A stretch of DNA of 64,000 nucleotides from Candidatus Binatia bacterium (lineage in GTDB: Bacteria > Desulfobacterota > Binatia > UBA9968 > CAXXLF01): contig CAXXLF010000002.1 of assembly GCA_963664015.2 (NCBI GenBank), positions 704,001 through 768,000 on the forward strand. The letters run 5' to 3'. Position numbers and translations under genes: made by a program. The notes under the pieces were generated by a model, which saw only the letters and a list, made by a program, of their open reading frames with translations, did no database searches and had not been told where the DNA came from. This document shows positions 14,875 to 53,740 of the stretch, piece by piece. Position 1 is the stretch's first letter; each line of letters opens with the position of its first letter.

Positions 14875-15125
14875 GCGTCCTCCCACAGATAGACTCTATT
14901 CTTTGGCTCTTTGGCGCGTTCATATAACAATTTCGATTCAACCCATCCGGTCCCAGCAAACATAAAGGAACTCCAACCATTGTGTCAAACCTCCTACAAC
15001 ATGAATGCAATCGCCCAACTCGCTTGCGAGTTCGAACACAGACTGAAAAAACTGGTTATTTGACAAAACAAGCCGGCCAGAATAAGCATTGTTTACCCAT
15101 TTTTTCAACGAGGGAGAGGATCGAC

Positions 15126-20570: not shown

Positions 20571-20687
20571 TGGGACGCCCTCTCAAGTGTTATTATCGTT
20601 TTTTTCTGTTTCATATTTCAAATTCCCCCATACGCGGCTTCACCGTCATCATTAGCAGGCAGCTGAAACACACTGTTCGCAAGCCGC

Positions 20688-26569: not shown

Positions 26570-26647
26570 GCCCATCGGGAAATCGTTTAAGAGAGCACGG
26601 TTTAAAAATGGTCGACCGGATCCTTCGAAGAGAAAGGAAACTTTAAA

Positions 26648-31663: not shown

Positions 31664-32074
31664 ATGCGCAGGAGTTTCCCCTTGAAACATGCCGGAGGCT
31701 ATCGAGCCATGTAGGGCAAGGGATGTACGGCCCAAGGGACCTTTGCATTTCTCTCGGGGACTGAAGGCATCGATGCAGAAACGCTAAAGGTCCTTCCCAC
31801 GATGGATGAGCATGTCGACATGGCCTGGGACAAGATCAAGGAGCGACTGGGCGATATGGGAACCTCGTGCGATGATATCGTACAAAAAATAACTTTCGTG
31901 ACAGAAATGGACGAATGGTTCCGCCACGATATCTGGTACCAGAACCGCTGGCTAAAAAAGAACAGTCCCAAGCTGATGGAAGAGGAACCTGCTGGAACTC
32001 TGCTTCAAGTTTCCCGCCTAGCCCTCCCGGAAATGAAGGTGGAAATCCAGGTCATCGCCGTGGTTCCAGAATAG
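31664..32074 (+). pseudogene. RidA/YjgF-family gene interrupted by a single in-frame TAG (31712-31714)
   Basis: MRRSFPLKHAGGYRAM*GKGCTAQGTFAFLSGTEGID...PAGTLLQVSRLALPEMKVEIQVIA; GAGGA RBS before ATG 31664; in frame with ORF 31802-32074. Confidence 0.75.
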
Positions 32075-32094
32075 ATCTTCCAAGAAAGAAACCT

Positions 32095-36868: not shown

Positions 36869-37968
36869 CTACGTCAGGGAATAGCTGGTACTGCGCCCAC
36901 CGCCACCGTCTTTAATAAGAACACCCCGATTAACAAGGTCTTGTATATCACGTAAGGCCGTATCCTGTGAGCATTTGGCAATCGTCGCCCATTTGAATGA
37001 CGTTAGCTTGCCCTCCAATCCGCCCAGGAGATTGTTCAACATCATACGTTGGCGATTATTGAACGATGTGTCGGCATAGTTTTTCCAAAACTCAGCCTTG
37101 AGTAAAACTCCGGCTAACGTTTCTTCCGTACCGTCAAAAGCACGGTCGAGGCAGCCGAGAAACCATTCCATCCACGGGGTGATATCAAGACTGGCTTTTT
37201 GTGTTTTCTCCAACATGTCGTAGTAGGCCTTTCGTTCGATCCTGATCTGCGCCGACATGCTGTAAAATCGTTGCGCACTCTGTTCGGAACGGACCAGCGT
37301 CATATCGGCAATCGCTCGTGCAATGCGTCCGTTTCCATCGTCAAAGGGGTGAATGGTCACAAACCACAAATGGGCAAGCCCGGCCCGCAAGACAGGGTCC
37401 GTCCCGTCAGTGCCGTTGAACCACCTGAGAAACTACATCATTTCTTCCTTAAGGCGCTTTGCTGCAGGTGCCTCAAAATGCACATACTGCCGTCCCAACA
37501 CCCCGGACACCACTTGCATCGGTCCTCCCGCATCATCCCGCCATCAACCCACTTTGATCTTCCTCATGCCGCTGTAAGCCCTCGGTAAAAGCGAGGCATG
37601 CCAGATGAACAATCGCTCAGCAGTCAGCGGAGTATTATCATTCTGCGAAGCGTTCAGCATCCTTTCGACCACGCCCTCAACATTACGGTCGAAAGGCGCC
37701 AGCGCACCTGTCTCCATTCCCAACCGCTTTGCAATGGAAGAACGTACCTGCTCGCGACTTAAAATTTCTCCTTCTATCTCGGAAGATTTAACAACCTCCA
37801 AGGTTAGCGTCTCAAGCGTTGCTTCCGCTCGCAAAGGGAACCCTAGAGTCTCCATGCGACCCATCAAGCGCCCCTGCGGTGGCGTAACGCCGCCAGCGGG
37901 CTAGCCAACCTTTCCGTGTCCCACCGGAAATGCGGCCAATCTGACAATTCATAAATATAGCGATTCAA
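36869..37968 (-). pseudogene. Fic-family (DUF4172 + Fic) protein pseudogene
   Basis: YIYELSDWPHFRWD N-terminus, SSEIEGE, VG*WRDD, HPFDDGNGRIAR Fic motif, GGGRSTSY C-terminus; two frameshifts and a stop. Confidence 0.88.
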
Positions 37969-38177
37969 TCACCGCATTCTTCATTGAGATTCGCCGTATA
38001 TCCTACGGATTTTATAGGGCCATTCACCCCAAATATGCCTAATGCTGCCTCCGACACACACAAGTTTGACAACCTATCGATAGTAATGTTAAAGAGCAAG
38101 CATCGATGGGCGCGAACAATTTGACCAACCCCATTAACAACCCCCCCCGTTAACATAAAGGAAAGAGGCTCGTTCCA

Positions 38178-40604
38178 ATGGCAAAGTCGATTCCCGGAAG
38201 CTTCAGCGATATGCCCATGACCCAGCCACGCTACGTTGGTAAAGACGTTACGCGGATTGAGGACGTGACGCTGCTCACCGGTTGTGCTGAATTCACCAAT
38301 AACGTTTCATTGCCCAGCATGCTGCATGCGGCAGTCCTGCTAAGTCCCCACGCCCATGCCCGCATAACGCGCATCGACACCTCCAAGGCCCAAATGCTTA
38401 AGGGGGTGGTCGCCATTGTGACGGGAGAAGAAGCGAAACAATGGTCTGAGCCGGTGTCGGGCTTTCCCCAGGGTTGGGCAGGCCACTGCCTCGCCATAGA
38501 CAAGGTGCGATTTGTAGGCGACCCAATTGCAGCGGTAGCCGCCACCAGCCGTTACATCGCGGAAGACGCCCTCGACCTGATCGAAGTGGAGTACGACGTA
38601 CTCCCCCCCGTCGTCGATCCAGCCAAAGCCTTGGAACCTTCCAGCCCCCTACTCTACGAAGAGCGGGGAACCAACATTATCTACCAACGGGTTTTTACCT
38701 ATGGGGAGATTGATGAGGCCTTCGCCAAGGCCGACCTCGTAGTCAAAGACGACCTGAGGTGGCATCGAGCCAGCGGCAATCCCATCGAAACTATCGGCTG
38801 TATCTCTCAGTGGAATCAGACGGAGCAATCCTTAACAGCATGGGGTGGATTTCAAGGGACCGGGTTCTACACGCCGTCCATTAGCCAGGGGCTTCGAATC
38901 CCGTCCAATAAAATCCGTCTGGTCCCCCTACCCCATGGCGGGTCATTTGGCACCAAGATCTATCCCCATGCGGTCATACGAATGGCACTCCTGTCCCGCA
39001 AGGCCGGAGGCCGGCCGGTCAAATGGATTGAGGATCGTCTGGAACATCTCAAGGGAAGCTATACCCATGGTCCGGATCGTTTCCTGACCGCTGAGATGGC
39101 GCTAACACGCACGGGAGAGATCCTCGGTATTCGGATGAAGGTCCTCGATGATCTCGGGGGACACGCAGTGTCCGTAGCCCTTGGGAAAGCACTTAAACCC
39201 CTTTCTTGCCTTACGGGACCCTATCGCATGCGACACGCTCAGTACGATTTGACCGTCGTTGCCACCAACAAATGCCCGCAGGGTTCCTACCGCGGTTGGG
39301 GCGTGCCTACCCACAACCTGGGAATCGAGCATTGCATCGACCTGGCAGCGCGGGAATTGGGACTCGATCCCGCAGAGATTCGCCGCCAAAACTTGTTGAG
39401 ACCCGAGCAGTTTCCATACGAATCCCCCAACGGCGCTAGGTACGATAGCGGCAACTACGAGCGCACGCTGGACATGGCCTTGGATCTCGCCGGTTACAAG
39501 GAACTGCGAAAACAGCAAAGCGAGGCCCGCGCACAGGGAAGGCTGGTAGGGATCGGTGTGTTTACCGGAGTCGAGCTCAGCGGGGTGGCCATGAGCATGT
39601 TCACACTTTTGGGACCCAACTCACCCTTCGGCACCTCAATGCCTGAAAGCGTCCGAGTACGCATCGACGTGACCGGGAAGATCTTCGGTGAAGTGACCTT
39701 TCCCTGGGAAGGCCAAGGGCAACACAGCTTTGCCACCAGTATTTTGGCTGATTACTTTGGCGTCCCCCGTGAGCATGTCCAGGTCGTCGCCGTGGACAGC
39801 CTCGCCGCCGGGCCGGGGACAGGCCCCATCGGCAGCCGGCAGGCGGTGATGCTCTCCGGTGCAGTCCTTGGGGCGGCCGGCAAAATCGCGGACAAGCTGC
39901 GCAAGGTGGCCGGGATAATGATGGAGGTGGACGCTGAAGACATCGAGTTGATGGACGGGAAGCTACAGGTCAAGGGCTCGCCGAGCAAGGCCTTGCCTCT
40001 CCAGCAGGTCGTCGTAAGGATGCTCACCCGGTCGGACCTGTTGCCCGAGGACGTGGACGGCAACCCCGAAGCCAGCTACACTTACAATCCACCAGATCGC
40101 AAACTCCCCGACGACGAAGGGAGAGGGAGTTTCGATCTTACAGCTGCCAATTCGGCCCATGTGGTAATGGTAGAGGTCGATGCCGATACCGGACAGGTCA
40201 AAATCTTGAAGTATGCCATCTCGGACGATTGCGGCGTCAGATTGCAACCCGCCGTCGTGGAAGGAATGACTCAAGGTGCCGTGGCTCAGGGCGTGGGGAT
40301 GACGCTCCTGGAGGAACACGCATACGACGAAAACGGGCAGTACCTGAGTTCCACGTTCATGGACTATCTGATGCCCACTATTTGGGAGGTCCCCATAACC
40401 GAACGGAGCTTTACCGAGACCCCGTCACCGTTTTCTCCTCTGGGGATCAAGGGAGCAGGCGAAAGCGCCGTGCTAGCCACTCCTTCGGTATTGCTTAATG
40501 CCATCAACGACGCATTGGCACCCCTTGGAACGAGGTGTCGAACCATACCGGCGTCACCGCTGCGCCTATGGGAATTGATCCGCTCTGCTGAAAAGCAGGT
40601 TTGA
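38178..40604 (+). CDS. Mo-hydroxylase large subunit (CoxL-like) #3
   Basis: 808 aa; paralog of #2 (shared TQPRYV N-terminus); GGSFGTK, GSYRGWG, YDSGNY, GIKGAGE. Confidence 0.92.
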   Translation: MAKSIPGSFSDMPMTQPRYVGKDVTRIEDVTLLTGCAEFTNNVSLPSMLHAAVLLSPHAHARITRIDTSKAQMLKGVVAIVTGEEAKQWSEPVSGFPQGWAGHCLAIDKVRFVGDPIAAVAATSRYIAEDALDLIEVEYDVLPPVVDPAKALEPSSPLLYEERGTNIIYQRVFTYGEIDEAFAKADLVVKDDLRWHRASGNPIETIGCISQWNQTEQSLTAWGGFQGTGFYTPSISQGLRIPSNKIRLVPLPHGGSFGTKIYPHAVIRMALLSRKAGGRPVKWIEDRLEHLKGSYTHGPDRFLTAEMALTRTGEILGIRMKVLDDLGGHAVSVALGKALKPLSCLTGPYRMRHAQYDLTVVATNKCPQGSYRGWGVPTHNLGIEHCIDLAARELGLDPAEIRRQNLLRPEQFPYESPNGARYDSGNYERTLDMALDLAGYKELRKQQSEARAQGRLVGIGVFTGVELSGVAMSMFTLLGPNSPFGTSMPESVRVRIDVTGKIFGEVTFPWEGQGQHSFATSILADYFGVPREHVQVVAVDSLAAGPGTGPIGSRQAVMLSGAVLGAAGKIADKLRKVAGIMMEVDAEDIELMDGKLQVKGSPSKALPLQQVVVRMLTRSDLLPEDVDGNPEASYTYNPPDRKLPDDEGRGSFDLTAANSAHVVMVEVDADTGQVKILKYAISDDCGVRLQPAVVEGMTQGAVAQGVGMTLLEEHAYDENGQYLSSTFMDYLMPTIWEVPITERSFTETPSPFSPLGIKGAGESAVLATPSVLLNAINDALAPLGTRCRTIPASPLRLWELIRSAEKQV

Positions 40605-40627
40605 GAAAACAGAAAAGACAAAGAGGA

Positions 40628-40664
40628 CACGCGCAAAGACGCTAAGCACGCCAAGTTCAGAAAA
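40628..40664. repeat. ~38-bp intergenic repeat, copy 2
   Basis: See the copy at 1825-1863. Confidence 0.65.
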
Positions 40665-40694
40665 AATCGGTAAGGATCTAGGAGGTTAATTAAG

Positions 40695-41507
40695 ATGGCT
40701 AAGGCAAAAGAAGGATTCGTTCAGGCTGGTGAATACCGGACACGTTACTGGGAGGCCGGTGAAGGCGAACCTGTAATAATGATTCATTCGGCGGATCCCG
40801 GCACAGGAGGCGGTCTCGAATTCCGGCACACGATCGAGCCGCTAAGCGAGCATTTCAAAGTGTACGCGGTGGACATAATCGGTTTCGGCAAGACCGATCC
40901 TCCGAAGGCGCTCCTGAAGCACCCCGCCTACGTCAAGCACATGTTCGATTTCATGGACGCCGTGGGAATAAAAAAGGCCCATATTGTCGGAAATTGTCGG
41001 GGCGGTCTGATTGCCATCACCCTGGGATATGAACATCCCGAAAGAGTGAACCGCATCATCCTGATCGGGAATGCGGGCGGAGGCATTCCGCCGGAACTGG
41101 AAGAGAAGGCCCTGGCTCCCTACGCCAACTACCAGCCGACGAAAGAGAACCTGGAGGCCATGCTCTCCAAGAGCTACTTCGCCATGGATCAATCGGTACC
41201 ACCGGGCGTGTTCGAAGAGTATCTGCAGTGCAGCGCACGACAGTACGAAGCTTATGCAAAGCTCGGCGGTTATCCCATGGACGTACCTAACTGTAGGCCG
41301 CAACTGGCCGAGCTCAAGGTTCCAGTGCTCTTCGTCGTCGGGCGCGAAAGCAAGGTCCTTCCCATCGAGCAGGCATTGAAAGGTTACAACCTGACGCCGG
41401 GAAGCCGATTTTACTCTATGTCCAGTTGCGGACTCCACCCCCAAACCGAGTACCCGGACGAGTTCAACAAGATCGCCCTCCAATACCTCAAAGGGGATCT
41501 GTTCTAA
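40695..41507 (+). CDS. Alpha/beta hydrolase (BphD/MhpC-like fold) with Cys at the nucleophile elbow
   Basis: 270 aa; TRYWEAGEGEPV, AVDIIGFGKTD, HIVGNCRGG, SCGLHPQTEYPDEFN. Confidence 0.88.
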   Translation: MAKAKEGFVQAGEYRTRYWEAGEGEPVIMIHSADPGTGGGLEFRHTIEPLSEHFKVYAVDIIGFGKTDPPKALLKHPAYVKHMFDFMDAVGIKKAHIVGNCRGGLIAITLGYEHPERVNRIILIGNAGGGIPPELEEKALAPYANYQPTKENLEAMLSKSYFAMDQSVPPGVFEEYLQCSARQYEAYAKLGGYPMDVPNCRPQLAELKVPVLFVVGRESKVLPIEQALKGYNLTPGSRFYSMSSCGLHPQTEYPDEFNKIALQYLKGDLF

Positions 41508-41513
41508 CAGTCC

Positions 41514-42398
41514 ATGAAACCAGCGCCCTTCCACTACATTGCGCCCAGCAGCTTGGACGAGGCGCTGACACTGCTCGGGAAATACAACGGCCAGGCCAAG
41601 GTTCTAGCGGGGGGCCAAAGCCTTGTTCCGTTGATGAATTTTCGCCTCCTTCGCCCGGGTTACCTCCTCGACATCAACGGATTGAAAGAGCTGTCTGGGA
41701 TCCAGCTAGCCGATGGGAAACTGACCCTGGGCTCTCTCACGCGGCAGAGCGAAGTCGAGCACTCGGCAGAGGTGGAGCGGCAACTACCAATCCTGACCGA
41801 GGCGATCCGCCTTGTCGCTCACCCTGCCATCCGTAACCGCGGGACCGTCGGCGGGAGCCTGGTGCACGCTGATCCCGCCGCCGAGCTCCCGGTCGTCGCG
41901 GTGGCCCTGGACGCCGAGCTGGAACTGAAGAGCAAAAACGGGATCCGTTCGGTGCCCATCCCAGAGTTTTTCCTTGGCTACCTTGCCACCAGTATTGGCC
42001 TCGATGAAATATTGGTGAAGACTTCAATGGCCCTTCCCCCTGCGGGGACCGGGTGGTCTTTTTCCGAGTACGCTCGCCGCCACGGGGATTTTGCCATCGT
42101 CGCCGTAGCTGTCCTTCTCACTCTGGACCCGGAGGGAAAGATCGTCTTTGTTCGAATTGCACTGGGCGGTGTCGGTCCGGCTCCCATGCGCGCTTGCGCC
42201 GCTGAGAAGCTTCTCATGGGAAAAGCACCATCGGATGCCCTCTTCCGCGAAACGGCGGCTGCAGCAGTGACCGAGACCGACCCGGAAAACGATATCCATG
42301 CCTCGGCCTCCTACCGACGCCAGCTTTCGGCAGTCTATGTTCGCCGCGCACTGGAGACCGCCCATTCTCGTACTCAAAGGGGAAAAACAAGTGCCTGA
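41514..42398 (+). CDS. Mo-hydroxylase FAD-binding medium subunit #2
   Basis: 294 aa; MKPAPFHY, AGGQSLVPLMNFRL, IRNRGTVGGS, RRHGDFA. Confidence 0.92.
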   Translation: MKPAPFHYIAPSSLDEALTLLGKYNGQAKVLAGGQSLVPLMNFRLLRPGYLLDINGLKELSGIQLADGKLTLGSLTRQSEVEHSAEVERQLPILTEAIRLVAHPAIRNRGTVGGSLVHADPAAELPVVAVALDAELELKSKNGIRSVPIPEFFLGYLATSIGLDEILVKTSMALPPAGTGWSFSEYARRHGDFAIVAVAVLLTLDPEGKIVFVRIALGGVGPAPMRACAAEKLLMGKAPSDALFRETAAAAVTETDPENDIHASASYRRQLSAVYVRRALETAHSRTQRGKTSA

Positions 42399-42885
42399 AA
42401 AAATCTCCATTACTCTGACCCTCAATGGGAAACCGGTAGCGGCAGACGTCGAGCCGCGAGTCTCCCTGGTCGACTTTCTCAGATACCACGTGGGTCTCAC
42501 CGGAACCCATGTGGGGTGCGAACATGGAGTCTGCGGCGCCTGTACGGTCCTTCTTGATGGCGAGACCGTTCGCTCCTGCCTCCTCTTTGCGGTTCAAGTC
42601 AACGGCATGGACGTCCAGACCATAGAGAGCCTGGCAACTGAGGACGGCCTCCATCCCCTTCAGCAGGCTTTTCAGAAACACCACGCATTGCAGTGCGGGT
42701 TTTGCACTCCGGGCATGCTACTCGCTGCCAAGGAATTGTTAGAGCGAAATCCCTCTCCCAACGAGGATGAGATTCGCGCCGGAATCTCGGGCAATCTCTG
42801 CATGTGTACAGGCTATGTCAATATCGTGCGAGCCGTCCAGGCCGTGGCACAATCGGGGTCCTCGCAAGTAGGAAAATCGTCATGA
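42391..42885 (+). CDS. Mo-hydroxylase 2Fe-2S small subunit #2
   Basis: GTG start at 42391; GCEHGVCGACTV, LQCGFCTPG, NLCMCTGY. Confidence 0.92.
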   Translation: MPEKISITLTLNGKPVAADVEPRVSLVDFLRYHVGLTGTHVGCEHGVCGACTVLLDGETVRSCLLFAVQVNGMDVQTIESLATEDGLHPLQQAFQKHHALQCGFCTPGMLLAAKELLERNPSPNEDEIRAGISGNLCMCTGYVNIVRAVQAVAQSGSSQVGKSS

Positions 42886-45299
42886 AGGCTACGGGCGACA
42901 AGTGGGTCGGGCAGGCAGTCCCACGCACAGAAGACCCCGCCTTACTGGTCAGCCGGGGACAGTTTATCGACGATCTGAACCTGCCAGGACAGGCCTATGC
43001 CGCTTTCCTGCGAAGCCCCCATGCCCATGCAAAGATAACCCGTGTAGATGTGAGCCGCGCCCAGGCCCATCCCAGCGTCTTCACAGTGATGACTGGTGAT
43101 GATGTGGCTCGCTTGACTCGACCACAACGCGGTCGCGTCCCCCTCCAATACTCACCTAAGGTCTACGCTCTGGCCTATGAAAAGGTGCATTATGTGGGTG
43201 AACCTGTGGTGGCCGTTGTTGCTATAGACCGGGCCACGGCCGAGGACGTGCTCGAACTCATCGAGGTTGAATACGAACCGTTGCCAGCAGTTATCAATCC
43301 GGAAAAGGCCATAGAACCCGGGGCACCCACCGTGTTTGAGGAGGTCAAATCCAACACCCTCTGGCACGACACCTTTCCGTACGGCGACATCGAGGGAGCC
43401 TTTGCTCAAGCCGATCAGGTAATTCAGGAACGGTTCACCATCCACCGTTATTGTTCCACAGCCTTGGAAACCTTCGGAGCCATTGCCCAATTCGAGCCTG
43501 CTACAGGGGCGTTAACCATTTGGGGCCATACGCAGCAACCCAGTCAGGACCGCCAAGCCGTTGCCGCATCCTTAGGAATCCCTCTGAGTAAGATCCGATT
43601 CATTGTCCCGCCCATGGGCGGCGCCTTCGGCAATAAGGTCCGTCCAATGTTTCTGATCATCCTCGCCCTACTAGCACGGGAAGCCAAACGGCCGGTCAAG
43701 TGGATCGAAGATCGTCGTGAAAACCTACTCGCCCTCGGACACTCGGCCGATGGCATCATGGACGTTACAGCGGCCGTCAAGTCCGACGGGAGCATCCTGG
43801 GCATGAAGTTTCGCAACATAGAAAACGAAGGCGCGGGTATCGATTTCGCGGGACGACACAACCTCCTTATGCTCAGCAATATCGTCAACTGCTACCGTAT
43901 AGCCGCCGTTTCCTACGAAGGATACTCGGTCCTGACCAACTGTTGCCCCGTGGTCGCCAATCGTGGAATTGGAAAACCCTTTATGTGCTTTTCCGTGGAG
44001 CGGATGGTCGATGTAATTGCCGCCACCCTGAAAATGGACCGTATCGAGATTCGGAAGCGCAACCTGATACAACCAGACCAGTTCCCTTACGATACTCCCT
44101 CAGGCCAGACCTACGACAGCGGTGATTACCCTGAGCTGCTTCGCAAAGCGTTGGCACTGATCGACTACAAGGAACTGATGCAAGAACAGGCAAAGGCACG
44201 GAAGGAAGGTCGTCTGTTGGGCTTTGGCCTCGCCATGGGTGTAGAACCTGGAGGGTCCAATCTCAGCTACGGTATGCTGATTAGCGGTCCCACCCAGTTG
44301 CTCAGCGGCCAGGGTGAGGCGGCAAGGATCCGAATCGAAACCGATGGTACGGCTACCCTGTACATTGGAAGTCTCGAAGCCGGACAAGGTCACGCCACTT
44401 CACTGGCACAGATCGTCGCTGACGAGCTTGCCCTGGAGGTTGATCAAATAAATGTCCCAACCACCTTCGACACCGCAAGTCACCCGTCTGTCATGACTAC
44501 GGGCAATTATTCGAACAAATTCAACGGACATGACACCGCAGCTGCCATCGGCGCCGCCAAGAAGGTACGGGAGAAACTCCTGAATAGGGCCGCACAGCAC
44601 CTGGAGGCAGCGGTCCAAGACCTGGAGCTCCGTGACGGAAAGATCTCGGTGCGCGGGACACCGGGTAAAGGAGTAACCGTCGCCCAATTGGCCAGTCGTG
44701 CATACTGGAGCCTGGCAGACAATCAACCCGACGACGAGCCGGGCCTCGAAGCACTTTATTACTATCAGAACCCCATGGCCAAGAAACCCGACGAACAGAA
44801 CAGAGTCCGCGTTCAGCTTGGCTTCGCCGGTGCGGCCCACGTAGCTGTCGTAGAGGTTGACCCGGAGACCTTCGAGATCAAGCTCAAACGATACGGTGTG
44901 GTCCACGACTGCGGGCGCCAGATCAACCCCGCCATCGTCGAAGGCCAGGTCCACGGGGCTTCCGTCCACGGAATCGCTGCTGCCCTCTTGGAAGAATTCG
45001 TATACGACGAGAGCGGGCAGCTTATGACGACAAGCTTCATGGACTACCTAAAACCCACCGCTGCCGACATACCAACAATTTTGGGAGATCACCTCGAGAC
45101 ACCTTCCCCCTTTACTCCGCTAGGCACGAAAGGGGTCGGGGAAGGCGGAGCCGTTATAGCCCCAGGTGCTATTGCCAGCGCCGTGGAGGACGCCCTGGTG
45201 CCTCTAGGAATTCGCATTACCACTCTTCCGATTACACCGACCCGTTTGTGGGACGTTGTCTCGAGCAAAGGGACTCGATACGGTCCCAAAGCAGAGTAG
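42882..45299 (+). CDS. Mo-hydroxylase large subunit (CoxL-like) #4
   Basis: ATGA overlap with the small subunit; PRTEDP, GGAFGNK, VANRGIG, YDSGDY, HDCGRQINP, GTKGVGEGG. Confidence 0.92.
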   Translation: MKATGDKWVGQAVPRTEDPALLVSRGQFIDDLNLPGQAYAAFLRSPHAHAKITRVDVSRAQAHPSVFTVMTGDDVARLTRPQRGRVPLQYSPKVYALAYEKVHYVGEPVVAVVAIDRATAEDVLELIEVEYEPLPAVINPEKAIEPGAPTVFEEVKSNTLWHDTFPYGDIEGAFAQADQVIQERFTIHRYCSTALETFGAIAQFEPATGALTIWGHTQQPSQDRQAVAASLGIPLSKIRFIVPPMGGAFGNKVRPMFLIILALLAREAKRPVKWIEDRRENLLALGHSADGIMDVTAAVKSDGSILGMKFRNIENEGAGIDFAGRHNLLMLSNIVNCYRIAAVSYEGYSVLTNCCPVVANRGIGKPFMCFSVERMVDVIAATLKMDRIEIRKRNLIQPDQFPYDTPSGQTYDSGDYPELLRKALALIDYKELMQEQAKARKEGRLLGFGLAMGVEPGGSNLSYGMLISGPTQLLSGQGEAARIRIETDGTATLYIGSLEAGQGHATSLAQIVADELALEVDQINVPTTFDTASHPSVMTTGNYSNKFNGHDTAAAIGAAKKVREKLLNRAAQHLEAAVQDLELRDGKISVRGTPGKGVTVAQLASRAYWSLADNQPDDEPGLEALYYYQNPMAKKPDEQNRVRVQLGFAGAAHVAVVEVDPETFEIKLKRYGVVHDCGRQINPAIVEGQVHGASVHGIAAALLEEFVYDESGQLMTTSFMDYLKPTAADIPTILGDHLETPSPFTPLGTKGVGEGGAVIAPGAIASAVEDALVPLGIRITTLPITPTRLWDVVSSKGTRYGPKAE

Positions 45300-45374
45300 C
45301 TAAATGCCCAATGGGGATTTTCTGAATCCCCGGCGGTATCGAAACGATACCAAGCAGAAAGGGGGAGATAGAAT

Positions 45375-46838
45375 ATGGCCAAGCTAGAGTCTACAGGTGT
45401 CCAACCCACAAGTGGGACCTTCGGTTCCGATTTACACTCGTTCATTGAGAAGTACGAGCGCGAGTTTCCCAACGAGGTGCTCCACATTGAAAAGCCACTC
45501 AAAGCCGAGTGGGAAATCACCGCCCTTGCCATGCAACTGGAGAAAGACCACCGATTTCCCATTCTCATCTGTCACAACGTCACGGTCAACGGCCAGAAGT
45601 GCGAGATGCCCCTGGTAACCTTCCTAATGGCCAGCCGACTGCGCCTGGCCCGAGCCCTGGGCGCAGACATCCGGAACGCCGGGCTTGTCTGTTATGACCG
45701 CGTACAGAAACGGACGAAACCAGTAACCGTGCTACGCCAACAAGCCCCGGTCAAAGAGGTCGTGGAAAAGGGAGAGGATATAGACTTGCGTCGTTTACCC
45801 GCTCCCCTCCACCATCGCATGGATCCCGGACGTTACATCACTGAAGGATTTTTTCTTGCTTACAATCGCAACACCGGCTTAGACAACTCTGCTATGCAGC
45901 GAGGATGGTTGGCAGGAAAAGATGAAATTCGGGTGTTTCTAGGACCCAGCACCCACAATCGTCACAACCTACGGGAGTACGAGGAGGCAGGAGAGGACAT
46001 GCCTGCGGCCTATTGGGTCGGGCATCATCCGCTGGTTCTCTTAGGTGCACAGGCCCGTGTGGGGCTCGATGAAAGCCATTATGACACTGCCGGCGGCACT
46101 ATGGGCAGTCCGATACGACTGGTCCCGTCCGAGTCCCTGGGAGAGAAGTTTCTTGTCCCTGCCGACGCTGAAGTGGTTATCGAAGGCTATATTCCCAAGG
46201 GACAACGCAAACCCGAAGGGCCCTTTGGCGAATACACGCGCCACGTGGGACCGCAACGCTGGGGACCGATATTGAAGGTAACTGCAATCACACATCGTCG
46301 CGACGCCTATTGGGACGACGTGATGGTGGGTCACACCCATTGGATCAGCAGCATGATCAAAGAGGGAATGATCTTCCGCGCCGTGCAGCGGGTCGTGCCC
46401 GGGGTCAAGGCAGTCCACTCACCCATGTCCGGCACAGGTGTTTCGCACAGCTATATCCAGATCCATAAGACCGTGGAGGGACAGGGCAAGGTCGCGGCCG
46501 CCGCTGCGCTCAGCTCTTCCTTTGACCACAAGCATTCCTTCATCTTCGATGAGGACGTGGATATCTTCGACGAGAGAGAAGTATTTCTCGCCCTCGCGAC
46601 CCGATTTCAGGCCGATCGCGGCCTGATGTTGCTCCCCGGCATTACCGGGTCACCGCTGGACCCAAGCTCGTTCGATGGATCGACGACCTGTAAAGCCGGC
46701 TTCGACTGTACAAAGCCACTGGGAAAACCGTTCGCCGAGCGGCTTGGCATTCCGGACGATGTGCTCAAGAGTTTTGATCCTTTAGAAATCGTCAATCCGA
46801 CACGGTGGGATAAAATCCCGTTTGAACCCTGGGGATAG
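45375..46838 (+). CDS. UbiD-family decarboxylase #5
   Basis: 487 aa; DLHSFI, NSAMQR, EVVIEG, EGPFGEYT, DEDVDIFD, ALATRFQAD, GFDCTKP. Confidence 0.92.
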   Translation: MAKLESTGVQPTSGTFGSDLHSFIEKYEREFPNEVLHIEKPLKAEWEITALAMQLEKDHRFPILICHNVTVNGQKCEMPLVTFLMASRLRLARALGADIRNAGLVCYDRVQKRTKPVTVLRQQAPVKEVVEKGEDIDLRRLPAPLHHRMDPGRYITEGFFLAYNRNTGLDNSAMQRGWLAGKDEIRVFLGPSTHNRHNLREYEEAGEDMPAAYWVGHHPLVLLGAQARVGLDESHYDTAGGTMGSPIRLVPSESLGEKFLVPADAEVVIEGYIPKGQRKPEGPFGEYTRHVGPQRWGPILKVTAITHRRDAYWDDVMVGHTHWISSMIKEGMIFRAVQRVVPGVKAVHSPMSGTGVSHSYIQIHKTVEGQGKVAAAAALSSSFDHKHSFIFDEDVDIFDEREVFLALATRFQADRGLMLLPGITGSPLDPSSFDGSTTCKAGFDCTKPLGKPFAERLGIPDDVLKSFDPLEIVNPTRWDKIPFEPWG

Positions 46839-46850
46839 GAACAATCGCTG

Positions 46851-47996
46851 ATGCAAGGCACCATGAAAGCCGCCCGTCTCCATGGCTTTGAAAGTTCTCA
46901 CGGTAACGTTCAGGTTATTCATGTAGACCAGGTACCGATCCCCAACATAGGCCCCGGGGAGGTCTTGATTCGCGTCCTGCGATCGGGACTGAGCCATGGC
47001 GACCTTCATATGCGCGCGGACGCCGTGCAGTACGCACCTGAGATCAAGACGGTGCCGTTCCTCCCCATGACAATGGGCCACGACGGCATGGGAGAGGTCG
47101 CGGAGATAGGCCCAGAGGTAACCAATGTAAAGATAGGTGACCGGGCGGTGGTCATGTGCTCGATCACCTGCGGCTTTTGCCGCTTCTGCCGCTCCGACCG
47201 GCAGCACCTGTGCCTCTCCCATCGAGTCATGGGCTTTACCTCCAAGTGGGGGGAGAAGGGGCCCGAACGCCTGTTGCGCTACAAGGATGGGATGTGGGCC
47301 GAGTACTGTCGCGTACCGGCAACCAACCTGGTTCCCCTCCAATCGGGAGACGATTTCAACGAGATGTGCAAGGTCTCCCAAATGGCGGTAGGGTACCGAG
47401 CACTGAAGCGGGCGCGGTTCCGTAGCGGAGAAACCGTGATCATCAACGGGGCTTCCGGCATTACGGGGGTAGGAACGACCCTGTGCGCCCTGGCCATGGG
47501 TACAGTCCGAATTATTGCCGTTGCACGGAACCCCGTACCGCTGGAGCGAGTTAAGGCCATCGCCCCGAAGCGTATTACGACCGTCGCCCTGGCACGAGGT
47601 GAAAGCATCGCTGAGAAGGTCAAAGAAGCAACGGGAGGCGAGGGAGCCAATGTGCTCGTGGACTTGGCCCCGGCGGGCATTGAAACTGTGGTCGATTGTA
47701 TTCGAAATCTCGAGGGAGGTGGCCGGGTTTCATTGGTCGGTGCCAACCCGGAGCCTCTTAATCTTTCGCTGCGCTATCTGATGATGCGATCCATCGAATT
47801 TACCAGTGTGACGGGACGGTACTACACGGATTTTCCGGAACTCCTCGACTTGGTCCGGCAAGGTGTCATCGATACGCGACACGTCACCACCCGCTTCTTC
47901 CCGGTGGAGGAGATCAACACGGCACTGGATTACATCACAACGCGCGGGGATAACGACCCAATCTGGCCCATGTACGCACCGGTCGGGAGCGATTGA
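46851..47996 (+). CDS. MDR-family oxidoreductase #2
   Basis: 381 aa; GLSHGD, GHDGMGEV, CGFCRFCRSDRQHLC, INGASGITGVG. Confidence 0.88.
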   Translation: MQGTMKAARLHGFESSHGNVQVIHVDQVPIPNIGPGEVLIRVLRSGLSHGDLHMRADAVQYAPEIKTVPFLPMTMGHDGMGEVAEIGPEVTNVKIGDRAVVMCSITCGFCRFCRSDRQHLCLSHRVMGFTSKWGEKGPERLLRYKDGMWAEYCRVPATNLVPLQSGDDFNEMCKVSQMAVGYRALKRARFRSGETVIINGASGITGVGTTLCALAMGTVRIIAVARNPVPLERVKAIAPKRITTVALARGESIAEKVKEATGGEGANVLVDLAPAGIETVVDCIRNLEGGGRVSLVGANPEPLNLSLRYLMMRSIEFTSVTGRYYTDFPELLDLVRQGVIDTRHVTTRFFPVEEINTALDYITTRGDNDPIWPMYAPVGSD

Positions 47997-48069
47997 ACAA
48001 TGATTGTATCCACCGATGAATAGCAATATGATTCCAAGGATCGGTTAAGCAGAAATAAGGAGGAACAAA

Positions 48070-49533
48070 ATGGCAAAACCTGAGCAAGCCAAAGTCCAGT
48101 CCACAACAGGTCCCTTTGGCTCGGATCTCCACTCTTTCATAGAACAGTACGAAAAGCAGTATCCTGATGAGGTACTCCATATCGAGAAACCTCTCAAGGC
48201 CGAATGGGAAATCACCGCCCTGGCCATGCAGCTGGAAAAAGACCACCGTTTTCCCATCCTGATCTGTCACAATGTCACGGTCAACGGCCAGAAGTGCGAT
48301 ATGCCACTGGTAACTTTCCTAATGGCTAGCCGGCTCCGCCTGGCGCGGGCCCTGGGCGTGGACGTCCAGAAGGCTGGGATTGCATGCTACGAGCGGGTAC
48401 AAGAAAAGTTAAAACCCGTCGTCGTCTCCGCCAAAGAAGCCCCCGTCAAAGAAGTCGTGGAAAAAGGTGGCGACGTCGACATACGTCGACTACCCGCACC
48501 CCTCCATCACCGGATGGATCCGGGCCGCTACATCACCGAGGGCTTTGTTCTCACCTTTAACCGCAATACCGGCTTGGACAACTCGGCAATGCAAAGGGGA
48601 TGGTTAGCGGGAAAAGACGAAATCCGAATCTGGATGGGACCCAGCACCCACAACCGGCACAACCTGCGCGAGTACGAGGAGGCGGGAGAAGACATGCCCG
48701 TGGCCTTCTGGGTCGGCCACCACCCGCTGGTCCTCTTGGGTGCTGAAAATCATGTGGGTCCCGATGAAAGCCACTATGAGACCGCGGGAGGAACCATGGG
48801 CGCTCCCCTCCGGCTGGTCCCGTCCGAATCCCTGGGAGAGAAATTCCTGGTTCCCGCAAACGCGGAAATCGTCATCGAGGGGTATGTCCCCAAAGGCCAG
48901 CGCAAGCCCGAAGGACCCTTCGGCGAGTATACCCGCCACGTTGGACCCCAGCGGTGGTGTCCATATATGAAGGTGACGGCGGTCACGCACCGCAAGAACC
49001 CTTATTGGGATGACAACATGGTGGGACATACCCACTGGATCAGCAGCCTGACCAAAGAAGGCGTCGCCTTCAGTGCTATCCAGAGAGTGGTACCGGGAGT
49101 CAAAGCCGTGCACGCCCCCATGTCTGGGACAGGGGTCAATCATATTTACATCCAGATTCGGAAGACCGTAGAGGGACAGGGCAAAGTGGCCGCGACGGCC
49201 GCTCTGACCGCTTTTTTCGGACTCAAGCATGCCTTCGTTTTTGACGAGGACGTCGACATCTTCGACGAGCGGGAAATCTTCCTCGCGTTGGCGACACGCT
49301 TCCAGGCCGACACCGGTCTATTGGCACTCCCGGGCATGACCGGATCGCCGCTGGACCCCAGCTCCCCCGATGGGCACATCGCATGCAAGGCCGGTTTCGA
49401 CTGTACCAAACCGCTGGGAAAACCCTTCGCCGAACGGCTCGGTATCCCGGACGATGTGCGCAAGGCGTTCGATCCATTAGAAGTCATCAACCCGGCACGT
49501 TGGGACAAGATCCCCTTTGAGCCCTGGGGATAA
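48070..49533 (+). CDS. UbiD-family decarboxylase #6 (close duplicate of #5)
   Basis: 487 aa; co-linear with #5 with long identical stretches and the identical C-terminus WDKIPFEPWG. Confidence 0.92.
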   Translation: MAKPEQAKVQSTTGPFGSDLHSFIEQYEKQYPDEVLHIEKPLKAEWEITALAMQLEKDHRFPILICHNVTVNGQKCDMPLVTFLMASRLRLARALGVDVQKAGIACYERVQEKLKPVVVSAKEAPVKEVVEKGGDVDIRRLPAPLHHRMDPGRYITEGFVLTFNRNTGLDNSAMQRGWLAGKDEIRIWMGPSTHNRHNLREYEEAGEDMPVAFWVGHHPLVLLGAENHVGPDESHYETAGGTMGAPLRLVPSESLGEKFLVPANAEIVIEGYVPKGQRKPEGPFGEYTRHVGPQRWCPYMKVTAVTHRKNPYWDDNMVGHTHWISSLTKEGVAFSAIQRVVPGVKAVHAPMSGTGVNHIYIQIRKTVEGQGKVAATAALTAFFGLKHAFVFDEDVDIFDEREIFLALATRFQADTGLLALPGMTGSPLDPSSPDGHIACKAGFDCTKPLGKPFAERLGIPDDVRKAFDPLEVINPARWDKIPFEPWG

Positions 49534-49566
49534 ATCAAGAAAAAGCAATCGCAAAGAGTCACACCG

Positions 49567-50709
49567 ATGCAAGGAACAATGAAAGCCGCCCGGCTTTATG
49601 GATTTAAAAAGACCCACGGGCCCAAGGACCCTAAGGACTTAGTCCGGGTCGAAGAGGTCCCGATCCCCGATATTGGACCAGGCGAGGTCCTGATCCGTGT
49701 CCTCCGCGCGGGACTCAACCACGGCGATCTCCATATCCGGGAGGATGCGCTGCAATTCGCGCCCGACAACACGACCGTGCCTATCCTCCCGATGATCGTG
49801 GGTCACGACGGGCTCGGTGAAGTCGTTGAGGTCGGACCCAACGTGATCAATGTTAAATCGGGAGACCGTGCGGTCGTCATGTGTTCCATCACCTGCGGTT
49901 ATTGCAAATTCTGCCGCTCCGATCGTCAGCACCTATGCGTGATGCACCGGGTGATGGGTTTCGTGGCCAGGTGGCGCGAAGGTGGCCTGGACCAACTGCT
50001 CCGTTATAAAGACGGACTCTGGGCCGAGTACTGTCGCGTGCCGGCGACCAACCTGGCCAAGCTCAGGCCCGATGACGACGTCGACCAGATTTGCAAGGTC
50101 TCCCAGATGACCGTGGGATATCGAGCTCTGAAGCGAGCCCGGCTGCATTCGGGGGAGACGGTAGTTGTCAACGCAGCCACCGGCATTACAGGGATCGGCA
50201 CCGTATTGAGCGCGCTGGCCATGGGTGCCGCGCACATCATCGCAGTGGCCCGTAACCCCGTACGGTTGAAAACTCTACGTAGTATCAATCCCCAGCGAAT
50301 ATCGACGATCGGCCGCGGGGAGCCCATCACCAAGAAAATCCTGGAGCTGACTGAGGGGCAAGGGGCCAGCGTCCTAGCCGATCTGACTCCCGCGGGTGCG
50401 GACTCGACCGTGGAATGCATCAAAGGCCTTGAACCCGGCGGGCGGGTGACCCTGATCGGCGCCAATCCCGAACCGCTTAATCTTCCCATCCGTTACCTCA
50501 TGATTCGATCCATCGAGTTCACCAGCGTGACCGGCCGCCACTACACGGATTTCCCTGAAGTGTTTGACCTGGCCAGGCGCGGTGTGATCGATACCAGGCA
50601 TGTTACCAATAAAATCTTTCCCATCGAGGGTATCAACGATGCCCTCGACTTTATTGAAAAACGAGGCGACAACGACCCCCTGTGGCCTATGTACGCCCCG
50701 AAGGACTGA
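49567..50709 (+). CDS. MDR-family oxidoreductase #3
   Basis: 380 aa; GLNHGD, GHDGLGEV, CGYCKFCRSDRQHLC, VNAATGITGIG. Confidence 0.88.
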   Translation: MQGTMKAARLYGFKKTHGPKDPKDLVRVEEVPIPDIGPGEVLIRVLRAGLNHGDLHIREDALQFAPDNTTVPILPMIVGHDGLGEVVEVGPNVINVKSGDRAVVMCSITCGYCKFCRSDRQHLCVMHRVMGFVARWREGGLDQLLRYKDGLWAEYCRVPATNLAKLRPDDDVDQICKVSQMTVGYRALKRARLHSGETVVVNAATGITGIGTVLSALAMGAAHIIAVARNPVRLKTLRSINPQRISTIGRGEPITKKILELTEGQGASVLADLTPAGADSTVECIKGLEPGGRVTLIGANPEPLNLPIRYLMIRSIEFTSVTGRHYTDFPEVFDLARRGVIDTRHVTNKIFPIEGINDALDFIEKRGDNDPLWPMYAPKD

Positions 50710-50742
50710 AACATCTAGTCAAAATGACATAAGGAGAAGATC

Positions 50743-50925
50743 ATGGCAGATTTCGAATACGTACCGTGTCCCAAATGTCAGAAGAAGTTCATGGTGGGAG
50801 AAGAGTTTTTCCGTCTAGCAGAAGCCTACTGCCACTGCCCCTATTGCGCTAACGAGTTTAAAGTCGGAGTCGCCGCAGGCGACGCCTCACGCCCAGGGGC
50901 GCAGGGCAAGTACAACCCCTATTAA
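50743..50925 (+). CDS. Small zinc-ribbon protein
   Basis: 60 aa; CPKC...CHCPYC; strong RBS AAGGAGA; 33 nt after MDR #3. Confidence 0.75.
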   Translation: MADFEYVPCPKCQKKFMVGEEFFRLAEAYCHCPYCANEFKVGVAAGDASRPGAQGKYNPY

Positions 50926-51097
50926 TCTCAATCAGTTTCTGGTTCTAGCCCCTCCTCCCAGATTTGGATTCGGGTAGAGTATAGTTGCAAGTCACATCGT
51001 GCAAAAGCAACTGTCTTTCTGTCCCGTTCCGTGGAACCGTGAAGAATTACAATATCCTATAACTGATTTTCCGCTTTTAAGATTCAAGGAACTAACG

Positions 51098-51629
51098 ATG
51101 CGAATGTGGATATGGTTGTGCAGTTTGGGAAGTGTTTTAGCCATCGCCCCAGGTTGTGAGAAAAAGCCACAACCTGTCGAGCGCGGCAAATACCTTACCA
51201 CAGTCATGGGCTGCCACGACGGCCAGACGGCGCTCCCGTACTCGACATGACACGCCAACTCTCCGGCCATCCGAATAGGCTCCCGCATCCTACCTGGAAA
51301 ACCTCTGACATGCAGCAGCGCAATACTATTGCACTAACCAACTCATACTTGACCGCCTGGGCCGGCCCCTGGGGGGTGAGTTTCGCCACAAATATCACCC
51401 CGGATATGGAGACGGGTATCGCCGAATGGGAAGAATCAACGTTTCATCAGGCGTTGCGCACGGGAGAGCACCAAGGCCAGCCAAACGCCCGTGCTATCCT
51501 ACTACCCATGCCCTGGCCTACGATTGGGCTGGCGACGGATAAGGACCTAAAATCGATCTGGGCCTCTTGAGGAGCATTCCGCTCATCAGCAATCAAGTAC
51601 CCTTTCCCGTGCCACCTGGAGTTCAGTAA
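51098..51629 (+). pseudogene. Cytochrome c (diheme c-553-like) pseudogene
   Basis: VERGKYL..VMGCHD (CxxCH broken by a deletion/frameshift), then LSGHP, AWAGPWGVSFATNITPD.ETGI, ILLPMPW, DLKSIWA, followed by a further frameshift. Confidence 0.75.
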
Positions 51630-51719
51630 TCTACCACCTGCAATGGACGGTAGCCTGAAGCAATTTCAATAGACCAATCCCTGGCAACCCCGAATACTGG
51701 AATGATATAATCGAGCAAT

Positions 51720-52370
51720 ATGGATACGTGCTGTGAGGACAAATCAACAGAGATTGAAAGCCTGAAGGCCACACACAAGCGTGTCCTGATAGCGGTTTTG
51801 ACCATCAACGCGGTTTTGTTTTTTGTCGAGGTCATCGCCGGATGGATTGCTCATTCCACGGCCCTCCTTGCCGATTCTCTAGACATGCTTGGCGACTCTC
51901 TGGTTTACGGTTTCAGTCTATATGTGCTCTGGCGCAGCACCCAGTGGAAAGCCCTGGCGGCGATTCTCAAAGGCATCATCATGGCTCTGTTCGGACTAGG
52001 GGTCCTGGGAGAAGTCGTCTATAAAGTCGTCGCGGGACTGGTGCCCGACGCTGGAACAATGGGCATTATTGGCATCCTGGTTCTGGTCGGTAACGGGGTG
52101 TGTTTCTGGCTGCTGTACCGTCATTGCTCCGATGATATTAATATGCGATCCACGTGGCTTTGCTCGCGTAACGATATCATCGCCAATCTCTCGATTTTGG
52201 TGGCGGCGGTAGGAGTCGTTCTTTTCGACTCTATCTGGCCTGATGTCCTAGTAGGAACCGCCATCGCCCTTCTCTTCCTTCGAACCGCATGGACAGTATT
52301 GTCCGAGTCCTTTGGAGAGTATTCCAGGCTAAGGCTCGCGACCGAATCGGCAAGCGGATCCGGGGGATAA
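51720..52370 (+). CDS. Cation transporter (CDF-like Co/Zn/Cd efflux, TM domain only)
   Basis: 216 aa; STALLADSLDMLGD, DDINMRSTWLCSRND, WPDV. Confidence 0.88.
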   Translation: MDTCCEDKSTEIESLKATHKRVLIAVLTINAVLFFVEVIAGWIAHSTALLADSLDMLGDSLVYGFSLYVLWRSTQWKALAAILKGIIMALFGLGVLGEVVYKVVAGLVPDAGTMGIIGILVLVGNGVCFWLLYRHCSDDINMRSTWLCSRNDIIANLSILVAAVGVVLFDSIWPDVLVGTAIALLFLRTAWTVLSESFGEYSRLRLATESASGSGG

Positions 52371-53572: not shown

Positions 53573-53740
53573 CTCTGACCTCCCTGCAAAGTGTTCTCGA
53601 TGCTGGTTCCACCCGGGAATCCAGGCGAGCCTAATGAAAGTATGCAGCCCGATGGGAAACGTCAAGTCATGGGATTTTCTACTGCTGAATAAGCATCGTG
53701 AATTTGAAATCAACCGAATGCCCTACCCCACCCAACCCTA

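Follow-up and report, generated by a model that had tools for sequence, protein, structure and literature searches.

The stretch of 64,000 nucleotides analyzed here comes from a Candidatus Binatia bacterium (GenBank assembly GCA_963664015.2, contig CAXXLF010000002.1, positions 704,001 to 768,000; below, "the window", with positions counted from its first letter), and it carries at 38178-50925 ten genes in the order L1-ABH-M-S-L2-UbiDa-MDRa-UbiDb-MDRb-Znr. The encoded proteins are two molybdenum-cofactor large subunits (L1 and L2) with one medium (M) and one small (S) subunit of a Mo hydroxylase, an alpha/beta hydrolase with a cysteine nucleophile (ABH), two UbiD-type decarboxylases, two atypical medium-chain dehydrogenases/reductases (MDRs), and a small Zn-ribbon protein (Znr). 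Our analyses suggest that these ten genes constitute a single operon for the breakdown of a carboxylic acid with a (hetero)aromatic or other ring, an operon that uncultured Binatia-like bacteria have in common with further bacteria from the environment, and we give this interpretation about an even chance. Its recurrence in many contigs that are independent of one another makes the arrangement as such far more than a coincidence.

Results

The initial annotation had described ten co-directional genes in this order, and we recovered all ten open reading frames (ORFs) on the plus strand at the same coordinates, with Pfam support for each assignment except that of the Zn-ribbon protein (Table 1). 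From the sequence at the junctions, the start codon of S is likely the in-frame GTG at 42391, which overlaps the stop codon of M, and the start codon of L2 is likely the ATG at 42882, which forms an ATGA overlap with the stop codon of S; both overlaps of reading frames were counted as translational coupling. The gaps between UbiD-a and MDR-a and between UbiD-b and MDR-b had been reported as 12 and 33 nt, and we obtained the same values. The two UbiDs are 82% and the two MDRs 68% identical, and L1 shares 38% identity with L2 and 51% with L3, a large subunit encoded further upstream in the window. In a promoter and terminator scan of 37400-51800, sites were no more common than in shuffled sequence.

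Gene order was compared from two sides. A count centered on UbiD, based on tblastn searches of species-representative genomes with the proteins of the window, comprised 20 UbiD genes at 18 loci, and a 19th locus with 33% identity (L019) was excluded from it. The gene 3' of UbiD was an MDR in eight cases, a Zn-ribbon gene in six and a tandem UbiD in two, two UbiDs had neither neighbor, and two contigs were too short, which leaves 18 informative genes; the two UbiDs without MDR or Znr neighbor represent a 66-68% paralog in L015 and L018. On the 5' side, a Mo-cofactor large subunit was found nine times and another UbiD twice, with nothing in six cases and three contigs too short, and L2 is the most common gene directly 5' of UbiD in the relatives. 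The second count, centered on MDR, was a metagenome scan with 45 orthologs of at least 55% identity, 40 of which are not of the type of MDR-c, the third MDR of the window. These 40 are preceded by UbiD in 27 cases, directly by L2 in four (L045, L049, L068, L073) and by nothing within 800 nt in four, and five contigs were too short; L069 has an MDR without a close UbiD upstream.

The full order L1-ABH-M-S-L2-UbiD-MDR was present in L016 and in genome G038 (L094), where L3 precedes L1, and no fewer than 12 metagenome contigs (L032, L043, L051, L063 and L064 among them) contain shorter or truncated forms of it. L001 and L002, the two genomes closest to the window, show the order L1-ABH-M-S-L2-UbiDa-UbiDb-MDRb-Znr and lack MDR-a. 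Metagenome-assembled genomes (MAGs) with this order are labeled Binatia, Verrucomicrobiota, Myxococcota/"Deltaproteobacteria" and Thermodesulfobacteriota, and their flanking genes differ. Of the 151 genomes of the class, three (G000, G047 and G038) contain MDR orthologs, and these three are also the ones with UbiD orthologs of 65% identity or more, while two further genomes contain 52-54% relatives only; as these genomes are related to one another, the profile describes the co-occurrence but does not test it statistically. The earlier proposal that the genes form a unit is therefore backed both by the recurrence of the order across MAGs and contigs and by the matching presence profiles. Some relatives carry additional or damaged genes. 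In L094, a luciferase-like monooxygenase gene lies between L1 and the hydrolase gene, and genes found 3' of MDR in other contigs include two or three SBP_bac_8 binding proteins, a UbiD4-like gene, split genes of a thiamine diphosphate enzyme, and cupins. The MDR ortholog of L068 (8007-9080) contains two stop codons, and the L2 and hydrolase matches of this locus are in pieces; in L061 (~6899-7640), only a UbiD fragment is left between L2 and MDR. Perhaps the module is decaying in these two loci, or the assembly is at fault.

The four enzyme types of the operon occur a second time in the window, in a different arrangement. This second module consists of UbiD3 and UbiD4, MDR-c, a dienelactone hydrolase with a Cys elbow, and the Mo-hydroxylase set M'-S'-L3, and UbiD3/UbiD4 together with an ABC transporter face MDR-c divergently. 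MDR-c is followed by a gene for an NMT1-type solute-binding protein, and this pair was also seen in L056, L057, L058, L066 and L095; among the five MDR-c-type metagenome loci, the NMT1 protein comes next in four. The pair faces UbiD3/4 in L056, L066 and L095, and in L095 M-S-L3 lies alongside as well.

In quick maximum-likelihood trees with support from the Shimodaira-Hasegawa-like approximate likelihood-ratio test (SH-aLRT), UbiD-a and UbiD-b form sister clades (SH-aLRT 99), each of which includes orthologs from L001 and L002, and the duplication hence predates the split from those genomes. The UbiD tree also separates a clade followed by the Zn-ribbon gene (support 99, 7 rows) from a clade followed by MDR (support 90, 14 rows). 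In the MDR tree, L001 and L002 join MDR-b (97), MDR-c has its own clade (100), and MDR-a, a separate long branch at an unresolved fork, does not come out as the sister of MDR-b. This mismatch between the trees, together with the absence of MDR-a from L001 and L002, speaks against the suggestion of the initial annotation that UbiD and MDR were duplicated as a pair: the pair was not simply copied as a unit.

The Mo hydroxylase belongs to the XDH/CoxL family. Its set of L (hammerhead and two MoCo-binding domains), M and S subunits is complete, and the two L subunits share one M and one S. The closest solved structures of L1 and L2 are CoxL of M. smegmatis (8uem) and quinoline 2-oxidoreductase (1t3q, E 1e-133 to 1e-137), and further matches were CO dehydrogenase (CODH) and 6-hydroxypseudooxynicotine dehydrogenase (7dqx). 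Both subunits score far below every NCBIfam equivalog cut-off. An assignment as aerobic CODH (CoxL) was rejected, since the active-site loop motifs of CoxL forms I and II (AYxCSFR or AYRGAGR) are absent from L0, L1, L2 and L3, and the TIGR02416 scores of 507-531 bits fall short of the cut-off of 991.

UbiD-a and UbiD-b contain the UbiD_N, UbiD and UbiD_C domains, all above the Pfam cut-offs, and the TIGR00148 score is 255.5 bits (cut-off 244.85). Both copies have the catalytic arginine and the E-x-P-F-x-E motif (NSAMQR171-176 and E281GPFGE286); R176 and E281-GPFG-E286 of UbiD-a align to the catalytic motif of HmfF, and both elements are invariant in 30 homologs. HmfF had been named before as a UbiD that works with a Mo hydroxylase, and HmfF (6h6v) is the closest solved relative of UbiD-a (E 1.5e-63, residues 76-468), followed in the structure ranking by AroY and indole-3-carboxylate decarboxylase (7p9q), with VdcC, UbiD and Fdc1 lower; this placement among the named references reflects the score ranking against the PDB and NCBIfam. 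UbiD-a reaches 213 bits against the VdcC model of NCBIfam, for which the cut-off is 650. Many orthologs carry the Joint Genome Institute (JGI) label "2,5-furandicarboxylate decarboxylase 1", an automatic name. The assignment as HmfF-type decarboxylase of 2,5-furandicarboxylic acid (FDCA) is not supported, in view of the partial match (76-468), the distant UbiX, and the lack of an AMP-binding gene in the window. The prenylated flavin mononucleotide (prFMN) cofactor would be supplied by the single UbiX of the genome (TIGR00421, 238.9 bits, G000:C2:1280431-1280976), encoded ~0.5 Mb from the operon. There are five matches to the AMP-binding domain (PF00501) in the whole genome, all of them outside C2:704001-768000, and the nearest one (C2:785109) carries stop codons. 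The absence of a coenzyme A (CoA) ligase noted earlier is thus confirmed for the window with respect to AMP-binding genes; CoA-transferases were not searched for.

The UbiD complement is unusually large for one UbiX. Besides the two copies in the operon, four more UbiD-family genes lie within the 64 kb (330-1769, 4280-5659, 19143-20570 and 20688-22088), which are only 26-33% identical to UbiD-a/b, and further copies similar to UbiD-a/b are found elsewhere in the 3.5-Mb genome, such as a 71% copy at C1:988096-989505.

The initial annotation had called the MDR proteins atypical, and a comparison with 1rjw bears this out. In the ligand numbering of 1rjw, Cys38 is replaced by Ser in MDR-a and by Asn in MDR-b and MDR-c, Glu62 by Asp, the third ligand Cys148 by Gln, and the proton-relay residue Thr40 by Gly; His61 is kept. 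The structural zinc site is retained, with C110, C113, C116 and C124 invariant, and the Rossmann motif is intact and accompanied by AxARNP. The nucleotide motif of the clade is GA(S/T)GxTG, which in MDR-b reads G-I-T-G-x-G-T. Asn at the position of the catalytic Cys was also found in six of seven aligned distant relatives (34-42% identity), and the best solved relatives are ordinary Zn-dependent alcohol dehydrogenases (ADHs) and 5k1s, with similar scores. An assignment as zinc-dependent MDR alcohol dehydrogenase was rejected: the fold and the Cys4 lobe are present, but the catalytic ligand set and the Ser/Thr relay are incomplete. Zinc-free MDRs of the quinone oxidoreductase (QOR)/enoyl-reductase type are marked by Asn at the catalytic-Cys position together with a GA(S/T)GxxG motif. 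On account of the Asn or Ser in place of the catalytic Cys and of the nucleotide motif, the MDRs of the operon are more likely to be ene/quinone-type reductases than alcohol dehydrogenases.

This MDR clade is small, with 64 of 1.84 billion cluster representatives at E<=1e-30, and isolated, as the identity of full-length relatives falls from 54% directly to ~40% and lower; the relatives of 34-54% identity make up a wider MDR clade with the signature GLN(G/H)GD. A search of the ESM Atlas with MDR-b returned solely unnamed "alcohol dehydrogenase" clusters. All three genomic copies of the family lie within the window. A 48-50% relative in genome G047 (L093) is found in an unrelated context of deoxyhypusine synthase, a MobA-like gene, an MFS transporter and a protease. 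The AlphaFold2 model of MDR-b was poor because the alignment was too shallow (mean predicted local distance difference test score, pLDDT, of 62.9, with the catalytic domain mostly <50), and it was used for neither active-site nor fold analyses. The complex prediction of UbiD-b with MDR-b gave an ipSAE of 0.00 in both runs, which speaks neither for nor against binding.

ABH is closest to CarC (1j1i, E 1.6e-34), CumD, BphD and HsaD among solved structures. The description of this protein as a Cys hydrolase proved accurate, as it has an alpha/beta hydrolase fold with the nucleophile elbow GNCRGG, which is kept, Cys included, in 9/9 orthologs. The position of the triad Asp is taken by Ser or Asn, with the preceding Glu kept in 8/9 orthologs, and the His, located in SCGLH, is offset by one residue. 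With its Cys nucleophile, Ser/Asn at the Asp position and shifted His, ABH was rejected as a classical Ser-His-Asp meta-cleavage-product C-C hydrolase.

In Znr, the cysteines C9, C12, C32 and C35 are invariant in 35 sequences, and residues 1-45 are highly conserved. None of its 64 homolog clusters is functionally annotated; most are unnamed or "hypothetical", and four have unrelated automatic names. The Znr gene lies directly 3' of UbiD orthologs in L003, L004, L005, L007, L008, L012 and L067. It adjoins MDR only in the window, L001 and L002, and in none of the metagenome loci with at least 400 nt 3' of MDR. A Foldseek search with the AlphaFold2 model (pLDDT 73) returned generic Zn-ribbons alone (E>=0.17), and a PDB sequence search gave nothing below E 0.28; the VdcD chain was absent from the top 50 fold matches and unmatched at E<=10 in the sequence search, and the NCBIfam scan gave no VdcD match either. 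VdcD, a protein of <10 kDa encoded beside the UbiD-like VdcC, consists of two CxxC knuckles followed by a tail with little fixed structure, and it is an essential allosteric activator of VdcC that binds near the ERE motif (PMC8379154). By analogy, for which we draw on gene position and the CxxC pattern only, Znr would most likely be a small VdcD-like accessory subunit of UbiD. Loci of the Zn-ribbon type contain a bicupin gene, and in L012 (2997-9303), UbiD-Znr is also followed by genes for an isochorismatase-family hydrolase and for hydantoinase/oxoprolinase A and B. It is only a hint, but this gene set would suit a lactam or amide ring chemistry of the UbiD clade followed by the Zn-ribbon gene.

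The stretch was near-complete in runs of two organisms and partly present in several seawater metagenomes; one run (X1) has all of it in a single, almost identical contig and may be where the window comes from. Two metatranscriptome runs on seawater, each from a separate study, yielded contigs of 151-268 nt with 96-99% identity, which cover the 5' end of L1, ABH, M, the UbiDa/MDRa junction, MDR-a, UbiD-b, MDR-b, the MDRb/Znr junction, and Znr. RNA contigs are lacking for most of L1 and L2, from which we draw no conclusion.

The remainder of the window is likewise rich in catabolic genes. In total, it comprises six UbiDs, four Mo-L subunits, cupins, an extradiol dioxygenase, amidohydrolases and solute-binding proteins. 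Two proteins at 52424-53713 (-) and 61728-62918 (-) match only Meth_synt_2, the catalytic domain of cobalamin-independent methionine synthase, and genes for a glutathione S-transferase, an Amidohydro_2 protein and an extradiol-type Glyoxalase dioxygenase (60686-61669) lie around them. Two ORFs of 334 aa without Pfam match, at 7910-8914 (-) and 13882-14886 (-), are situated inside the catabolic island. Between the two modules, RecQ-like pieces occur in different frames at 34854-35924 (partial DEAD and Helicase_C) and 36086-36679 (RQC and HRDC), next to a short Fic-domain fragment at 36869-37390 (-); perhaps these are a broken helicase gene and a Fic remnant, and as such the scar of a rearrangement.

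Table 1. Genes of the operon (first ten rows) and of the second module in the window.
Feature	Position	Strand	Properties
L1, Mo-cofactor large subunit, XDH/CoxL family	38178-40604	+	808 aa; Ald_Xan_dh_C + MoCoBD_1 + MoCoBD_2
ABH, alpha/beta hydrolase, meta-cleavage-product type, Cys nucleophile	40695-41507	+	270 aa; Abhydrolase_1
M, FAD-binding medium subunit	41514-42398	+	294 aa; FAD_binding_5 + CO_deh_flav_C
S, 2x[2Fe-2S] small subunit	42391-42885	+	Fer2 + Fer2_2; start inferred
L2, second Mo-cofactor large subunit, XDH/CoxL-type	42882-45299	+	Pfam-supported; start inferred
UbiD-a, prFMN-type decarboxylase, HmfF-like	45375-46838	+	487 aa; UbiD_N + UbiD + UbiD_C
MDR-a, atypical MDR	46851-47996	+	381 aa; ADH_N + ADH_zinc_N
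UbiD-b, paralog of UbiD-a	48070-49533	+	UbiD_N + UbiD + UbiD_C
MDR-b, atypical MDR	49567-50709	+	380 aa; ADH_N + ADH_zinc_N
Znr, Zn-ribbon protein	50743-50925	+	60 aa; CPKC...CPYC; variable tail; no Pfam family above cut-off
UbiD3 + UbiD4	19143-22088	-	64% identical to each other, 28-33% to UbiD-a/b
MDR-c	25427-26569	+	65% identical to MDR-b
MDR-c + following NMT1-type solute-binding protein	25427-27613	+	pair kept in related loci
Dienelactone hydrolase	29506-30228	+	Cys elbow GYCIGG
M', S', L3, second Mo-hydroxylase set	31915-34515	+	3' of dienelactone hydrolase

Discussion

From gene content, conservation, co-occurrence and the active-site substitutions, which are all direct observations, we infer a tentative order of steps, the chemistry of the reductase, a role for Znr and a class of substrates. 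In this proposed pathway, L1 and L2, sharing M and S, would hydroxylate the ring with oxygen derived from water, and the HmfF-like UbiDs would remove the ring carboxylate by means of prFMN from the single distant UbiX. The MDR would then act as an NAD(P)H-dependent ene/quinone-type reductase, not as an alcohol dehydrogenase, and reduce either the hydroxylated and decarboxylated ring or an opened enone, and the Cys-nucleophile hydrolase would open the ring or cleave the product by C-C, C-N or C-O hydrolysis. The pathway would do without a locally encoded activation by CoA. We believe that the four steps belong together chiefly because the same four enzyme types recur in the second, differently arranged module.

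Several points weigh against this interpretation. The sequence alone names no substrate, and the NCBIfam scan of eight operon proteins gave zero matches at equivalog level. The ene/quinone assignment of the MDRs relies on motifs of the QOR/enoyl-reductase group and not on a comparison by a tool, and Znr has no sequence or fold link to VdcD. Furthermore, the UbiDs followed by a Zn-ribbon gene in L004, L005, L007 and L008 mostly lack both the MDR and an upstream Mo subunit, which shows that the set of four enzyme types can be split. Finally, the RNA contigs may be DNA that was carried over into the RNA libraries, and because of this possibility they give a weak hint of transcription.

A more intimate relation between two of the enzymes has also been envisaged, in which the MDR would be a dedicated physical partner of UbiD that either pulls a carboxylation or supplies a dearomatized substrate, so that UbiD and MDR would be the functional unit. 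The very short gaps of 12 and 33 nt would agree with such a partnership, as would the position of UbiD directly 5' of MDR in 27 of 35 informative metagenome loci, the MDR directly 3' of 8 of the 18 informative UbiD genes from genomes, the match of UbiD subclades with their downstream neighbor (MDR clade, Zn-ribbon clade), and the fact that MDR-c, too, adjoins UbiDs, which are of a different clade. However, six of the 18 informative UbiD orthologs are followed by a Zn-ribbon gene and have no adjacent MDR, the MDRs of L045, L049, L068 and L073 directly follow L2 without a UbiD and that of L069 has no close UbiD, L001 and L002 contain no MDR-a after UbiD-a, and UbiD-a/b are sisters whereas MDR-a/b are not. 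The obligate MDR partner suggested in the initial annotation is not supported by these loci, and we consider a dedicated partnership of the two enzymes unlikely.

It seems similarly unlikely that the operon encodes a variant of the furan pathway for hydroxymethylfurfural (HMF), FDCA or furoate, with the UbiDs acting like HmfF, L/M/S as an HmfABC-like hydroxylase at C5 of furoate, the Cys hydrolase opening a lactone, and the MDR oxidizing or reducing a side-chain alcohol or aldehyde. Among solved UbiDs, HmfF comes closest, and its substrate appears in the JGI names of many orthologs; a dienelactone-type Cys hydrolase would suit the opening of a lactone, and hmf clusters pair a three-subunit Mo hydroxylase with a UbiD. 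But the HmfF match is limited to residues 76-468, the JGI names are automatic, the window contains no furoyl-CoA ligase (an HmfD-type AMP-binding gene), and there is no adjacent UbiX (HmfG), the sole copy being ~0.5 Mb away. The known route from furoate to 2-oxoglutarate is, moreover, redox-neutral after the hydroxylation and needs no reductase, and two different L subunits as well as an MDR without the catalytic residues of an ADH are ill-suited to the oxidation of a side-chain alcohol. Least probable, in our opinion, is that the genes are mere neighbors from different pathways in a large island of aromatic catabolism, whose adjacency reflects the shared ancestry of related contigs. The window is packed with catabolic genes, and most of the related loci encode proteins with 70-75% identity, several of them identical, and are thus not independent samples. 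Against a mere neighborhood stand the order, which is kept across differently labeled MAGs while the flanks differ, the overlapping reading frames and short gaps, the second module with the same four enzyme types in a different order, and the matching presence/absence profiles in 151 genomes.

UbiD enzymes are sought as catalysts for reversible (de)carboxylation, and few have known substrates or partners. The literature that was searched describes neither this cluster nor a UbiD with an MDR neighbor nor UbiD genes in Binatia, and, within the same limits, the earlier statement that no characterized UbiD with an obligate MDR partner is known still holds. Catabolism by a Mo hydroxylase together with UbiD is a known theme, and what is new are two unstudied enzyme variants and a small protein family linked to UbiD. 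The operon offers a well-conserved and apparently CoA-free pairing of Mo hydroxylation with prFMN-dependent decarboxylation. Its two unstudied enzymes are a meta-cleavage hydrolase relative that has a Cys nucleophile and an MDR whose active site is that of neither an ADH nor a classical QOR, and the Zn-ribbon family tied to UbiD genes may extend the activation principle of VdcD. It is a speculative idea, with a rather low probability, that the MDR clade represents a new ring-reducing (dearomatizing or ene-) reductase that works with UbiD and a Zn-ribbon activator in a route independent of CoA and O2. If so, the substrates of this route in uncultured bacteria of sea and soil would be heteroaromatic acids or aromatic acids with several carboxyl groups, and the reductase may render the reversible UbiD step effectively irreversible. 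Since the Binatia-like bacteria that carry the operon, which are uncultured, come from seawater and soil data, the pathway may play a part in how ring-shaped carboxylic acids are turned over in dissolved or soil organic matter.

The individual proteins can be compared with well-known relatives. The MDRs share ADH_N, ADH_zinc_N and the Cys4 lobe with the zinc-containing MDR alcohol and polyol dehydrogenases but lack their full set of catalytic zinc ligands. With the zinc-free QOR/enoyl-reductase MDRs, they have the Asn and the GA(S/T)GxxG motif in common, and they differ by possessing a Cys4 lobe, which the QORs do not have. ABH has the same fold as CarC, CumD, BphD, HsaD and MhpC, which are its best sequence matches (E 1e-27 to 1e-34), but it contains Cys instead of Ser, Ser/Asn instead of Asp, and a His moved by one residue. 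As in the VdcCD vanillate/4-hydroxybenzoate decarboxylase, a small protein with two CxxC motifs is encoded beside a UbiD.

As to whole pathways, the hmfABCDE and hmfFGH genes of Cupriavidus basilensis combine a three-subunit Mo hydroxylase with a UbiD, and HmfE is a crotonase-type protein. An XDH-family three-subunit Mo hydroxylase, a UbiD and a hydrolase for a heteroaromatic carboxylate would be common to both systems, whereas our operon has two distinct L subunits, no CoA ligase in the window and no adjacent UbiX, a Cys alpha/beta hydrolase in place of HmfE, and an atypical MDR and a Zn-ribbon protein in addition. The Mo hydroxylases for N-heterocycles of the CoxL/Qor group (1t3q, 7dqx) have the same L/M/S architecture, although an equivalog-level match to them is missing here. 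The isonicotinate pathway of Mycobacterium follows the logic of two successive hydroxylations, a reduction and then hydrolytic ring opening, and it proceeds via a CoA thioester. To our knowledge, the classical hydroxylation pathways for isonicotinate and nicotinate contain no UbiD. The proposed route would resemble them in its two-step hydroxylation, reduction and hydrolysis, and would differ from them in its UbiD enzymes.

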